Of a stretch of DNA of 64,000 bases, positions 11,801 to 17,800 are shown piece by piece. How positions within the stretch are numbered: position 1 is the first letter of the stretch; each line of letters begins with the position of its first letter. Source of the stretch: Escherichia coli (lineage in GTDB: Bacteria; Pseudomonadota; Gammaproteobacteria; Enterobacterales; Enterobacteriaceae); NCBI RefSeq assembly GCF_003334335.1, contig NZ_QOWQ01000030.1, one strand, 5' to 3'. Made by a program: the position numbers.

Positions 11801-14800
11801 GCGCAGGAAATTGAAGCGTTACTCACCGCCTTTACGCCGGAAGAAGACGTTCGCCCACTGCTGGCGCTGGAGAATATCTTTGTTGATCAGGATTTTAGCA
11901 ATAAAGAGCAGGCGATCCAGTTCCTGTGCGGCAACCTCGGCGTTAACGGGCGCACTGAACATCCGTTTGAGCTGGAAGAAGATGTCTGGCAGCGGGAAGA
12001 GATTGTTACCACCGGCGTTGGTTTTGGCGTAGCGATCCCGCACACCAAATCTCAGTGGATCCGTCATTCCAGTATCAGCATTGCCCGGCTGGCGAAACCG
12101 ATTGGCTGGCAGTCAGAAATGGGCGAAGTCGAACTGGTGATCATGCTGACGCTGGGTGCTAACGAAGGGATGAATCATGTGAAAGTCTTCTCGCAGCTGG
12201 CGCGTAAACTGGTGAATAAAAACTTCCGCCAGTCGTTGTTTGCCGCGCAAGATGCACAAAGTATCCTGACGCTGCTGGAAACAGAATTAACCTTCTGACG
12301 TTAGCCCTGAAAACGGGCGCTGTACTCTCCCGGCGTCAGACCAAACTGACGCCGGAAAACGCGACAAAAATAGTCGCTATCCGGAAAACCGCAACGCTGT
12401 GCCACTTCATGAATTGACAGATGATATTTCTGCAAAATCATCCTCGCCTTCGCCATTCGCACCCAACGCACATACTCGATAAAACGCATCGTTCCATGCT
12501 GAGCAAACAGTTTTGACAGATGATTGGGCGTGATATTAAAAAACTGCGCCACGCTCTCGCGGGTGAGCGGCTGGGCATAATTATCCTGAACCCAGTTACA
12601 AATGCTGTGATAGAGAAAATCGCCGCGCGGCTGCGAATTGCCCGGCGGCATATTCACCACGCTACGGCAAAGATGCAGCAAACTTAACACCAGCGGCTGA
12701 ATGATATTTTGCTCCAGCGGCGAACGGCTAAGATGGGTGAGGGCGGTAAGCATCGCTTCACCTTCACCGCGTTGCAGGCTGGGAAGCTGGATCTGGCGAG
12801 CAGGATGCAACAACGACGTGGTGCGGCTATCGTAAAACGATAACCCAAGCCAGGTCGGAGCGAACACCAGGCTTAACAGCATCACCGGTTTGTTGTTGAC
12901 CGGTAAATTAGCCGCGCGCGCCGGAATAAACAGCATTTCTCCTTCCACCAAACGTTGCTGCTTTGCTTCCAGCAGATTGCCGTATTCGCCGCGCAGCACG
13001 ATATCCAGACGGGGAAAATCAATACATAAACTGCCCACCGGCAACGAGGCAGGCTGGCTGGCAAACCAGACGCGCCCCAGTAGTTGCGGGTTAAGCACCA
13101 GGCCGCTGAACAGATCGGCGAAAAATTGTTGATCGGCGGGCAAGCCTGGTGCTTTCATGAAAGTTCCCGATTAAAGATGCATTAACTGGCGAAATTCTTT
13201 CACTTTGCTGCGGCTGACCGGCACTTCAAAATCCAGATCTTTCAGTCGCAGAATGTAGGTGTTATTAAACCACGGTTCGATTTCGCGTATTTTGTTCAGA
13301 TTGACACAAAATGAGCGATGGCAGCGGAAAAAATGCGACGGCGGCAGTTTGCTGCAAAATTCGGTAATGTTCATCGGCATTACGTAGGATTCACGCCGCG
13401 TATAGACAAAGGTCATTTTCTCGTGCGCTTCGGCGTAATAGATATCGTTAATTGGCGTGACGATTATTCGCTCATCTTTCACCAGATTAATGGTGTCATT
13501 CTCACGCGTTACCGTCGCGGCAGGCGTACTGCTGGTCTGCTGTTGTTGCCAGGCCGCTTCCAGTTTTTGCAGCATCCCGGTAATACGTGACTCCTGATAC
13601 GGTTTGAGAATGTAGTCAAACGCCTCCAGTTCAAACGCTTCTACCGCATGTTCTTTCCACGCGGTGATGAACACAATAAACGGTTTATGGGCGAACTGGC
13701 TGATGTTTTGCGCCAGCAACACGCCATCCAGCGACGGAATATTGATATCCAGAAAAATGGCGTCGACGCGGTTATGCTGCAAAAACTTCAACACGTCCAG
13801 ACCGTCGTCAAAGGTGCCGACAATCTCCATCTGGCTGTGCTCTTTAATTAGCCAGCTCAGTTCCTGTTGTGCCAGGAATTCGTCTTCAACAATGATGACT
13901 TTCACAATATCACTCCGGCTCAAAGCAATAACGTAGCCTGTGAGGCGACTGGGGTGCGTTGGTTAGGAATGTAAAACGCAATTTCCGTCCCCGGCTCCAG
14001 GCGGCGGATATGCAGCCCCTCGCCATACAATAACTTCACGCGATGATGGACATTCAGCAGGCCAATTTTATTGCCCGGCATTTCATTCGCTTCGACCCGC
14101 TCAATCACCTTTGGATCGATGCCGTGCCCGGTATCTCGCACCGCAATGCGTACCCGATTTCCGCACTCTGCAACGCTGATGGTGACAACGCCTTTACCTT
14201 TGCAAGGCTGAATACCGTGGACAATGGCGTTCTCCACCAACGGCTGGATCAGCAGGCTGGGAATGCAGCAATTCACCTCTTCATCAATATCATAGATAAC
14301 CGTCAGCTTGTCACCAAAGCGGGCCTGCTCAATGGCAATATAGTCTTTAATTTGATACAGCTCTTTTTTGATATCGATTTGCTCATCGTCTTTTAATTCA
14401 ATGTTATAGCGCAGATAACGCGACAGATTAAAGATCAACTGGCGAGCGGTATCCGGATTCAGACGGATTGACGATGAAATAGCGTTCAGAGCGTTAAACA
14501 GAAAATGGGGATTAATTTTGCTTTGCAGGGCGCGAAGCTCTGCCTTATTTGCCATTTCACGTAGCTGCTCGGCGCGTGAAACCTCCAGTTGCGTGGAGAT
14601 GATTTGCGACAGACCGACCGCCATTTCCTGTAATGACGAGGTGATCTGATGCGCGTGGCAGTAGTAAATTTTCAGCGTTCCGGTCACGACCCCTTTCTCC
14701 CACAATGGGATCACCAGCATGGAATGAATCTCTGGTGTGCGGTGGGCTTCATCATTGTTTTTAATGATGATTTTTCCGTAATTCATCGCCTGACGGGTAG

Positions 14801-17800
14801 TCGGGCTAATGAAGTCATCGCCATTCTGATAGTTATGTTCACCCACGCCAACATAGGCCAGCACATGATCGGTATTAGTAATCGCCACCGCATCGGCGTG
14901 AATGTCATCGCGGATAATTTCGCAGACCTTGCGTAATGACTCGCTATTGACATGGCGAAACAGCGGTAGCGTTTTGTTGGCGATATCCAGCGCCAGCTTG
15001 GCCTGCCGCGCGGCGCTGGCCTCTTTTTCGCCCTCAACGCTTTGCACCAGAAGCACAATAAAGCCGATACAGACGCTACCGAGGATCATTGGAATGCCGA
15101 TTTTAGAGACGATATCGATCCCCAACGCGGTAGTTGGTGCCCAGACAATTACCAGAATCATGGTCAACGTCTCACACAACATGCCGCCGAGAATACCGAC
15201 GCGCCAGCGCTGTGCTTTGGGGATTTTCAGGTTGATCCAGCCCGATATACAACCCGCCAGAATGCTGGTGATAAAGCAGGGGATCGCCGTCACGCCGCCG
15301 ATATCAATTAAATACCGGTGAATACCCGCAATCACGCCGGTAATGATGCCTACCCACGGGCCAAACAGAATCCCGCCGGACATCACCGCGATAATACGTA
15401 CGTTCACCAGCGAGCCTTCTACGGGAACGCCGGACCAGGTGCTGAACAGGGCGAACAGCGAGAAAATGGCGGTAACGGCGAGCAATTCTTTTGGGGAGTG
15501 CGCCGACTTGTGCAACAGTTCGCGAAACAGGCGGATACGGATGAGAAAGAACAGGCAGATAAGCATTAACGCTGCCCGATCGAAGACCGCCAGCAGCATG
15601 TTGAATATTTCGTGCACGGGTGACTCTGAATAAGGATTAAACCTCTATGATAGGTAACCTGAAGGCTGATGACCAGCAGGCCGTTTTTGAGGAAAAACCA
15701 CAATTTTAAAAGGGGATTGATAGATAAATGGTGTATTAGCAATGCATCTCTTGATAATGCACTTCTGGTTAGTAAATTTATTGAAATTATTATGTTAATA
15801 AAATGAGTGGTAATTTTCTTGTTAGCGCAGATAAATTTCCTGTTTTTAAAGCAGAGTTCCTCATTTAACGTCATTAATAAAATGTTCTAAAACGCTGGAC
15901 AGACAGAAATTAATCAGGCTATTTTCAAAACAGCCACCATCGTGGCAGCGTCGCTCGGACGGTCCGGGCGCTAACGTTAATCTGAGGAAATTATGGCTGA
16001 CACTCGCCCTGAACGTCGCTTTACGCGCATTGATCGTCTCCCGCCCTACGTTTTTAACATCACCGCTGAACTGAAAATGGCTGCGCGTCGGCGCGGCGAA
16101 GATATTATCGATTTCAGCATGGGTAACCCGGACGGTGCGACTCCGCCGCATATCGTCGAAAAATTATGTACTGTGGCCCAGCGCCCGGACACGCATGGTT
16201 ACTCCACTTCACGCGGCATTCCGCGGTTACGTCGCGCCATTTCCCGCTGGTATCAGGATCGCTACGACGTTGAAATCGACCCGGAATCAGAAGCCATCGT
16301 CACTATTGGTTCGAAAGAGGGCCTGGCGCATCTGATGCTGGCGACGCTGGATCATGGTGACACGGTGCTGGTGCCGAATCCAAGTTACCCGATCCATATT
16401 TATGGCGCGGTGATTGCCGGGGCGCAGGTACGCTCAGTGCCGCTGGTGGAAGGTGTCGATTTCTTCAACGAACTGGAGCGAGCCATTCGTGAAAGTTATC
16501 CGAAACCGAAGATGATGATCCTCGGCTTCCCGTCAAACCCAACCGCGCAATGCGTGGAACTGGAGTTCTTCGAAAAAGTAGTGGCGCTGGCGAAACGCTA
16601 CGATGTGCTGGTGGTCCATGACCTGGCCTATGCCGATATCGTCTACGATGGCTGGAAAGCGCCGTCAATTATGCAGGTACCGGGTGCACGCGATGTGGCA
16701 GTCGAGTTCTTTACGCTGTCGAAAAGCTACAACATGGCGGGCTGGCGTATCGGCTTTATGGTTGGCAACAAAACGCTGGTCAGCGCCCTGGCTCGTATTA
16801 AAAGCTATCACGATTACGGCACCTTTACGCCGTTGCAGGTGGCGGCGATTGCGGCGCTGGAGGGCGATCAACAGTGCGTGCGCGACATTGCCGAACAGTA
16901 CAAACGCCGCCGTGATGTATTGGTTAAAGGGCTGCATGAAGCGGGCTGGATGGTTGAAATGCCGAAGGCTTCGATGTATGTCTGGGCGAAAATCCCGGAA
17001 CCATATGCGGCCATGGGATCGCTGGAATTTGCCAAGAAGCTCCTTAACGAAGCGAAGGTTTGTGTCTCGCCGGGGATTGGCTTTGGCGACTATGGTGATA
17101 CGCATGTTCGCTTTGCACTGATTGAAAACCGCGACCGTATTCGTCAGGCCATCAGAGGGATTAAAGCGATGTTCCGTGCCGACGGTTTACTACCCGCCAG
17201 CAGCAAACATATTCACGAAAACGCGGAATAAACACCGTCGTCAGAAATGCAAACAGGAGCCTGATGGCTCCTGTTTTTCATTGCACAGTTTGCTTTTAGA
17301 TCATCAGGGCAAAAGTACCGGCCCAAACGATGACCATAAAAGAAATGCCCATAAAGAAATATTTCACTTTACATCTCTCCGCGTAATTACTGTTACGCCT
17401 GAATGACTTCATTACACCTGATACAGTGAGTTGACACCGGGCAAAGCGACCTTAAAAGCCCTGTATTTTACCGTGGGCATCACCCCAGAATTCTGAGCTA
17501 AACTGCTCGAGACGGCGCTAATGTACGCCTAAAACTGAAACGAGACAAGAGGCATTTTCTTATTTACTTTTAGTAACTTACAAGTGTCTCATATCGGCGA
17601 CAGTTTAATTTCTGACGGTAATAATTAGATATTCAGCGAAGGAAAAAACCTTAAGAAAAAAGCCATAAAAACCATGAGGTTATTATGGCCGATTTGAGGA
17701 GGGAAAGAGTAAGAGCAGTTTGTTAAATGTACAACGACGATTCTCCCACCGGGCGCGTTTTAAAGCGACGGTGGATCCAGAGGTACTGCTCCGGTGCGCG

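Follow-up and report, generated by a model that had tools for sequence, protein, structure and literature searches.

AraC at araBAD, RhaS and RhaR at rhaBAD and rhaSR, and MelR at melAB are sugar-responsive activators of the AraC family which act together with CRP. Escherichia coli also contains cryptic phosphotransferase system (PTS) operons, frvABXR and sgcXBCQAER, in each of which an M42 peptidase is accompanied by a dedicated regulator. The subject of this report is ypdC, which encodes an AraC-family protein and which, in a 64-kb stretch of E. coli K-12 DNA (contig NZ_QOWQ01000030.1; hereafter the window, to whose full length all coordinates refer), lies between ypdAB and the convergent PTS operon fryB-fryC-ypdF-ypdE-fryA. 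The pyruvate-responsive YpdA/YpdB system activates yhjX via a GGCATTTCAT direct repeat (PMC4847170, PMC5552118), the published YpdB operator being GGCATTTCAT-N11-GGCATTTCAT (PMC4847170), whilst YpdC is catalogued as an uncharacterised AraC-family factor (PMC4797297). For convergent genes in general, Rho-dependent termination has been described, with 3′ ends trimmed back to a stem-loop (PMC6061677, PMC7815308). The best-supported explanation of the locus is that YpdC serves as the local regulator of the fry operon, which we consider probable on the basis of comparative sequence analysis: ypdC appears to accompany fry rather than ypdAB across genera, and the region upstream of fryB carries a conserved operator-like layout of the AraC type.

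The arrangement of ypdA-ypdB-ypdC against the fry operon in E. coli K-12 is real and already annotated, with the RefSeq annotation and our open reading frame (ORF) list in agreement on the gene calls. The segment 9700-15900 is 100% identical to E. coli K-12 MG1655, and at least 80% of it is present in 5412 of 5426 complete E. coli genomes. The features of the two facing units are:

6046-6372, plus strand: fryB, IIB (annotation)
6394-7641, plus strand: fryC, IIC (annotation)
7656-8741, plus strand: ypdF, M24 peptidase (annotation)
8741-9778, plus strand: ypdE, M42 peptidase (annotation)
9803-12298, plus strand: fryA, closing the fry operon; HPr-Enzyme I-IIA(Fru) fusion protein, 831 aa (annotation, NCBIfam, Pfam)
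12299-12300, no strand: 2-bp spacer CG between the fryA stop codon (TGA, 12296-12298) and the ypdC stop codon (12301-12303, TTA on the plus strand)
12301-13158, minus strand: ypdC, two-domain AraC-family regulator, 285 aa (Pfam, structural model, Foldseek)
13171-13905, minus strand: ypdB, LytTR-type response regulator, 244 aa (annotation, NCBIfam)
13920-15617, minus strand: ypdA, LytS-type sensor histidine kinase, 565 aa, GTG start (ORF, RefSeq, Pfam)

The ypdA-ypdB-ypdC genes form a tight, operon-like run, with spacers of 14 bp (ypdA-ypdB) and 12 bp (ypdB-ypdC). The first-pass annotation of the window had described the span 12301-15617 as a LytS-type kinase, a LytTR regulator and an AraC-family regulator standing together, with ypdC ending 2 bp from the fryA stop on the opposite strand. 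The span indeed has the ypdC stop and the ypdA start as its exact limits, the 2-bp gap is confirmed in the sequence, and the domain content of the three proteins agrees with their assignment. YpdA carries the Pfam domains 5TM-5TMR_LYT, GAF, His_kinase and HATPase_c; YpdB matches the NCBIfam LytR/BtsR models (E 3e-50 and 6e-44), and its Citrobacter koseri orthologue carries Response_reg (PF00072) and LytTR (PF04397). The pair has the make-up of a LytS/LytTR two-component system, with kinase input and catalytic domains in one protein and a receiver and LytTR domain in the other. On the opposing strand, FryA matches the NCBIfam models PTS_I_fam (E 1e-151), fruA IIA (E 1e-40) and HPr (E 4e-10), and the Pfam domains of the C. 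koseri orthologues, PTS_IIB and PTS_EIIC among them, agree with the assignments from fryB to ypdE; fry encodes the IIB, IIC, IIA(Fru), HPr and Enzyme I components expected of a fructose-family PTS.

The neighbours of ypdC across genera

A YpdC-seeded pattern scan of one genome per bacterial species, with neighbours located by tblastn, gave approximately 30 orthologous loci (63-98% identity). The order alaC, ypdA-ypdB-ypdC, fry operon, glk is found in Escherichia, most Citrobacter, Pseudocitrobacter and Kluyvera, and the full arrangement is also present in C. koseri, which was found via a FryA homologue search. The order fryB-fryC-ypdF-ypdE-fryA is itself conserved in at least 20 loci. In the window, the flanking genes (annotation/ORF list) are:

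4862-5827, plus strand: glk
15993-17231, plus strand: alaC

In 13 of the approximately 30 loci, representing at least five genera, ypdC adjoins fryA-ypdE-ypdF-fryC-fryB without ypdAB. Salmonella enterica subsp. arizonae and diarizonae have the order alaC, ypdC, fry, glk; the alaC-ypdC spacer there retains about 45 bp of the ypdB 3′ end together with a 30-bp piece of the alaC-ypdA spacer, and therefore ypdAB has been deleted in these subspecies, with ypdC and fry being kept. A further 11 loci (Enterobacter, Pluralibacter, Superficieibacter, Lelliottia and unclassified Enterobacteriaceae) have ypdC tail-to-tail with fry and neither ypdAB, glk nor alaC nearby. These 11 loci have a flanking ORF pattern in common, and in one of them (L019) the cassette lies between rnk and rna-dcuC, i.e. 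at a different chromosomal site. On balance, the comparison suggests that ypdC travels with fry, and that ypdAB is a lineage-specific neighbour.

The ypdA and ypdB genes of the window are precisely those of the described YpdA/YpdB–yhjX system, the known target of which was correctly placed elsewhere in the genome by the first-pass annotation (PMC4847170, PMC5552118). The window was also searched for a YpdB operator, at the fry promoter and beyond, and this possibility was rejected, the tandem GGCATTTCAT-N11-GGCATTTCAT not being found anywhere in the 64 kb; single GGCATTTCAT copies with at most one mismatch occur 13 times against 7.8 expected, which is about chance. One exact lone half-site lies at 14077-14086 (plus strand), inside the ypdA coding region on its opposite strand, with no partner copy. 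Of the YpdA relatives examined outside the orthologous cluster, the closest full-length one (54% identity) belongs to a kinase and LytTR regulator pair adjoining an oxalate/formate-family transporter of the major facilitator superfamily, which is the family of YhjX; this cluster contains neither an AraC-family gene nor fry genes. Because the YpdB operator is absent here and the related pair is without ypdC, ypdC looks like a neighbour, rather than a component, of the YpdA/YpdB system.

These observations bear on the alternative that YpdC is a third component of YpdA/YpdB pyruvate sensing, modulating yhjX or other targets of that network, with its position beside fry reflecting incidental synteny. 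The 12-bp spacing between ypdB and ypdC in E. coli is normally a hint of shared function, ypdA-ypdB-ypdC is given as an operon in a microarray table (PMC2731931), and the construction of a ΔypdABC strain treats the three genes as a unit (PMC10653868). Moreover, Citrobacter amalonaticus (L009) retains all of ypdABC intact, yet no fry operon is found within 10 kb of it. Set against this are the 13 loci which have ypdC without ypdAB, the precise loss of ypdAB with retention of ypdC in Salmonella, the lack of an AraC-family gene in the closest YpdA/YpdB-like pair outside the clade, and the absence of the YpdB operator near fry; we thus regard a role as third component as improbable. Co-transcription in E. 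coli alone, it should be cautioned, does not make ypdABC one functional system.

The association with fry has interruptions of its own, with 7-8 kb inserted between ypdC and fryA in Kluyvera ascorbata (L016:6518-14743) and Citrobacter sp. MGH106 (L027:10852-17704). The locus sample, being seeded with YpdC, is non-exhaustive (it missed C. koseri) and cannot detect fry operons which lack ypdC. Likewise, the FryA homologue search could not address fry without ypdC, all of the at least 120 proteins listed being at least 87% identical.

Several further observations were made on individual loci. In C. amalonaticus, unrelated genes replace fry (L009:10859-14700), including an ORF weakly similar to the retron Se72 effector (10944-11426) and an RluA-family pseudouridine synthase gene (11640-12422). 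The ypdC match in K. ascorbata L016 covers only 94% of the protein, and in a second strain (L033) only the first 23 YpdC residues are matched. A gene for an alpha/beta-hydrolase immediately precedes ypdC, in the same orientation, at the rnk-rna site (L019:9077-9907, plus strand; L017:8962-9852; L022:8924-9898), with ORFs of 276 aa in the same position in L020, L025, L029 and L030; its best NCBIfam matches are to 3-oxoadipate enol-lactonase and BioH-like models, all below cut-offs. The hydrolase, which has no counterpart at the ypdC-fry locus in E. coli, is perhaps a seventh gene of the cassette.

Within E. coli, IS1 or ISApl1 is inserted within 9700-15900 in a few genomes; in one of these the annotation calls the AraC-family gene simply ‘helix-turn-helix transcriptional regulator’, suggesting disruption of ypdC. 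The fryA gene is named ptsP by the Prokaryotic Genome Annotation Pipeline and fryA in NC_000913.3, and is hence confusable with the true ptsP (Enzyme I-Ntr) elsewhere. Some E. coli/Shigella records contain 1029-aa proteins in which a Peptidase_M42 (YpdE) part is fused to FryA, and others a shortened FryA of 756-790 aa; these forms may reflect frameshifts, deletions or start-site calls in a silent operon.

YpdC and the promoter region of fryB

Residues 204-281 of YpdC match the Pfam models HTH_18 (E 3e-20) and HTH_AraC (E 7e-10). The protein has the C-terminal domain of approximately 100 residues with two helix-turn-helix motifs that is characteristic of the AraC/XylS family, and this domain matches the solved DNA-binding domains of AraC, MarA, SoxS and GadX. 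Residues 1-180 gave no Pfam match, the AraC_binding domain being undetected, and a profile search with the N-terminal region against PDB sequences returned nothing significant, with cupins only at E 0.65-0.93. A structure prediction from the single sequence was unusable (predicted local distance difference test score, pLDDT, 40.8) and was discarded; an AlphaFold (AF2) model built with an alignment of 23 orthologues reached a pLDDT of 84.6. In the model, a β-rich N-terminal domain (residues 30-126) is followed by two long helices (132-168) and then by the DNA-binding domain. Foldseek matches the full-length model to the two-domain AraC members Rns, CsvR and ToxT (E ~1e-8), and the N-terminus alone to the RhaR regulatory domain (E 8e-3, probability 0.97) and to an RmlC-like cupin (E 4e-2). 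As modelled, a ligand-binding domain in the YpdC N-terminus is plausible.

The 260 bp upstream of fryB were aligned for 22 genomes from the two chromosomal contexts, between which the region is unalignable except for a block of about 95 bp. The features of the promoter region are:

5916-5931, plus strand: CRP-like site GTCGA-N6-TCACA, from the cross-genus alignment, centred at about −92.5 from the predicted start
5945-5963, plus strand: direct repeat R1, GGATTAATTCTCCAGTAAA, candidate distal YpdC half-operator, conserved in 22 sequences, centre at about −62
5965-5983, plus strand: direct repeat R2, GCATTATTTGTCTGGTAAC, 20 bp after R1, conserved in 22 sequences, information content 30.8 bits across the 22 aligned sequences, centre at about −42
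5981-5986, plus strand: predicted weak −35 element AACGGC, overlapped by the last 3 bp of R2
6004-6009, plus strand: −10 hexamer CATAAT, invariant in 22/22 aligned sequences, with the predicted start near 6016

R1 and R2 are 19-bp direct repeats with a period of 20 bp and the joint consensus GCATyAtTTgTCyrGTAA; the 20-bp spacer from R2 to CATAAT is not conserved. The repeats are also conserved in genomes without YpdB. Their spacing, from each other and from the CRP-like site, corresponds in our view to that of CRP, araI1 and araI2 at the araBAD promoter. A scan for the sigma-70 consensus does not call the fryB promoter because its −35 element is poor, as expected for an activator-dependent promoter. 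A repeat finder applied to the K-12 sequence upstream of fryB alone does not report R1/R2, which become visible only through cross-species conservation.

A position weight matrix made from the 44 repeats scores R1 and R2 in K-12 at 24.4 and 29.3, respectively, with the next best site in the window at 14.6, although, since the matrix was built from the promoters it scores, the absence of other matches is the informative part of this result. Neither the rest of the 64-kb window nor any of the 20-kb loci contains a comparable site. An autoregulatory site of this type upstream of ypdA or ypdC was also considered, and the matrix gave nothing above background there in the window or the loci. A single Enterobacter locus, and none of the others, has one additional match (L022:8798-8816, minus strand; GCTTTATCTGTCCGGTGAC; score 16.8), some 110 bp ahead of the alpha/beta-hydrolase gene. 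Directly after glk, a 10-bp stem with a T-rich tail (5841-5864, plus strand) looks like the glk terminator and marks where the fry promoter region begins on its upstream side; only Escherichia has this stem, other genera having different hairpins in its place.

From the co-location of the genes and the habits of the family, we infer that YpdC binds R1 and R2, and the element at 5916-5931 may be bound by CRP. The proposal of the first-pass annotation that YpdC may be the local regulator of fry gains real, if indirect, support from the genomic association of ypdC with fry and from the conserved AraC-type layout upstream of fryB. Other observations, in addition to the interruptions and sampling limits noted above, weigh against it. 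In the CRP-like site the right half, TCACA(C/T)TT, is invariant but just GA is conserved in the left half, leaving one good half. LytTR operators share the format of direct repeats at a period of approximately 20 bp. A screen of 40 proteins by chromatin immunoprecipitation with exonuclease digestion (ChIP-exo), the one systematic binding screen to include YpdC, found no binding sites for the tagged protein, the authors suggesting that it was inactive under the conditions used (PMC8464067), and no publication tying YpdC to fry emerged from our literature search, which did not cover the original YpdA/YpdB paper (Fried et al. 2013, J Bacteriol).

The ChIP-exo result, and the view of fry as cryptic, would equally fit a YpdC which is inert or which regulates distant genes, the fryB repeats then being bound by another factor; their format (~10-19 bp, 20-bp period) also suits other activator families. 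This sits poorly with a ypdC that is intact across genera, with 104 invariant alignment columns, that stays with fryA at two chromosomal sites, and with repeats that persist where YpdB is missing. We therefore consider an inert or distantly acting YpdC unlikely, and local regulation of fry by YpdC remains the explanation we prefer.

The ypdC/fryA junction

The distance between the ypdC and fryA stop codons is 1-4 bp in 19 of the 29 junctions compared (K-12 and orthologues), from Escherichia, Pseudocitrobacter, Enterobacter, Pluralibacter, Superficieibacter and Lelliottia, with a further junction at 13 bp; the near-abutment of the two genes is not a chance feature of K-12. Larger gaps are found in Salmonella (104-107 bp) and in Citrobacter (279-1134 bp). 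The Salmonella spacers (L013:10856-10959 and L028:10856-10962, from arizonae and diarizonae) contain a repetitive extragenic palindrome (REP)-like insertion, GCCGGATGGCGGCGTAAACGCCTTATCCGGCCTAC, and the ypdC hairpin described below lacks 2-3 pairs at these two loci.

Two features of the K-12 junction are of particular relevance to termination:

12330-12355, no strand: perfect 10-bp hairpin CCGGCGTCAG-N6-CTGACGCCGG, inside ypdC codons 268-277 and 32 nt past the fryA stop
12262-12278, minus strand: approximate Rho termination peak (~12270) of the ypdC-direction transcript, antisense within the 3′ end of fryA and some 31 nt beyond the ypdC stop

The Rho peak is taken from a published region centred at NC_000913.3 2502018 (+) and listed as ‘primary ypdC, antisense fryA’ (PMC7815308, Supplementary file 2). 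Its Rho score is 6.13 (p 1.5e-7), with reads of 69/14 without and 41/51 with bicyclomycin in direct RNA sequencing (PMC7815308). We mapped the peak to the window via the ypdC end at 2501987; its position is approximate, as the source method compares 800-nt windows. No 3′ end is given for fryA in Supplementary file 1 of the same study, presumably because fry is silent in those media. Stretches rich in C and poor in G, no more than a compositional hint of Rho dependence, are present on both strands, 100-200 nt past each stop. Rho ends the ypdC-direction transcript inside the opposing gene, as the published data show, and probably does the same for the fry-direction transcript.

The first-pass annotation had drawn from the convergent arrangement either transcriptional interference or a shared terminator, and a regulatory link between ypdC and fryA could in principle be of this kind. 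The stops are 2 bp apart, so that each transcript must enter the other gene, and a strong hairpin does follow the fryA stop. However, an intrinsic or bidirectional terminator at the junction was looked for and rejected: the scan of 12000-12540 contains no terminator-like site, with which the folds concur, and the sole strong hairpin is followed by AAAACGCG on the plus strand and GAGAGUAC on the minus strand, a U-tract on neither. Termination by Rho after ypdC limits read-through into fryA, and therefore antisense transcription through that gene, whilst both units are weakly expressed in lysogeny broth (69 reads in the upstream 800 nt), so collisions should be rare. The shared terminator is accordingly abandoned, the data do not call for interference, and interference or a common terminator as the regulatory link seems to us very unlikely.

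The hairpin itself is stable on either strand (ΔG −20.8 kcal/mol on the plus and −26.4 kcal/mol on the minus strand; z approximately −5), and its coding sequence is constrained. Synonymous-codon entropy, computed over 28 orthologues, averages 1.14 across ypdC and reaches its minimum, 0.57, in the 9-codon window that covers the hairpin. In the stem, R269 is encoded by CGG in 21/28, the locally preferred codons being CGC/CGT, and F268 by TTC in 26/28, three nearby Phe codons preferring TTT; the Gly codon in the loop and that after the stem vary freely. Where ypdC and fryA abut (gap of at most 13 bp), 9-10 of the 10 stem pairs are retained in 20/20 junctions, compared with at most 8 pairs in 6/10 junctions with a large gap or no fry, a comparison (0/20 versus 6/10 degraded) that is descriptive and not corrected for shared ancestry. 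We infer that the hairpin is a protective 3′ structure of the fry mRNA.

Alternatively, the hairpin could be without a function of its own and simply result from local codon preference combined with the conserved peptide F-R-R-Q-F-G-L-T-P-G of the AraC C-terminus. The amino acids of this peptide are invariant, CTG, CCG and CAG are common E. coli codons, and each synonymous stem position pairs with a non-synonymous one, so true compensatory changes are impossible. The persistence of the rare Arg codon CGG and of TTC in the stem against nearby preferences, next to freely varying Gly codons, argues the other way, as do the entropy minimum and the decay of the stem mainly where fryA no longer abuts. 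A by-product origin is a possibility we take seriously but hold to be less likely than not.

A proposed scheme and its relation to known systems

In the scheme we propose, two units of different origin would stand back to back: the YpdA/YpdB system, and a six-gene cassette composed of fryB-fryC-ypdF-ypdE-fryA and the convergent ypdC. YpdC would be a ligand-responsive activator of the AraC type, in which a cupin-like regulatory domain precedes the double helix-turn-helix of the C-terminus. Its sites would be R1 and R2, just upstream of and overlapping the weak fryB −35 element; together with CRP at about −92.5, YpdC would switch fry on when substrate is present, following the logic of AraC at araBAD. 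In Escherichia and Citrobacter, ypdC would be fed by the ypdAB transcript across the 12-bp spacer, and in other genera it would be expressed without ypdAB. Neither unit has an intergenic terminator because the units abut with 1-4 bp. The ypdC-direction transcript is stopped by Rho about 30 nt into antisense fryA, and the fry-direction transcript probably ends by Rho as well, with the conserved hairpin, embedded in the final 55 nt of ypdC, probably shielding its 3′ end.

A bolder version of this scheme can be formulated, in which the 1-4 bp abutment is a selected design, the hairpin held in synonymous positions of ypdC is a 3′-end or insulator element of fry within a compact convergent cassette in which regulator and operon travel together, and the capture of ypdC by the ypdAB transcript in Escherichia and Citrobacter links the supply of the fry activator to a sensor of pyruvate and nutrient state. 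We view it as speculative and unlikely; if true, the capture of ypdC by ypdAB would constitute a two-step cascade from the sensing of an overflow metabolite to the use of an alternative substrate.

YpdC and fry are among the parts of the E. coli K-12 genome that still await characterisation, YpdC being among the few AraC-family proteins without a known target. The analysis provides a specific target promoter, a candidate operator of 39 bp and a likely co-activator, and the hairpin is a small example of constraint at the RNA level within protein-coding DNA, here at a convergent junction. If confirmed, YpdC would be one more AraC-type activator of a sugar operon, filling a gap without changing the view of regulation.

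Among the known systems, the frv and sgc operons resemble fry in combining a fructose-family PTS, an M42-family aminopeptidase and a local regulator gene, and in their low laboratory expression; fry differs in having an AraC-family regulator, its own fused HPr-EI-IIA protein and an M24 peptidase. The junction resembles the described cases of Rho-dependent termination with trimmed 3′ ends in its bicyclomycin-sensitive region after ypdC, its C-rich stretches and its stable stem-loop without a U-tract, although here the stem-loop is embedded in the opposing gene's coding sequence and is accompanied by synonymous-site constraint.

The closest parallel is with AraC at araBAD. In contrast to that system, ypdC is not divergent from its presumed target but faces the operon's terminal gene, in convergent orientation and 6 kb away from the promoter; the period of the fry repeats is 20 bp rather than 21 bp, the YpdC N-terminus is without a detected Pfam AraC_binding domain, and YpdC is a putative activator. 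Nonetheless, YpdC has the two-domain build of AraC, with a β-rich, putatively regulatory domain preceding a double helix-turn-helix, and ypdC likewise adjoins a sugar-uptake operon. The fryB promoter, like that of araBAD, has two repeats approximately two helical turns apart, the proximal one lying over a weak −35 element, with a CRP-like site near −92.5.

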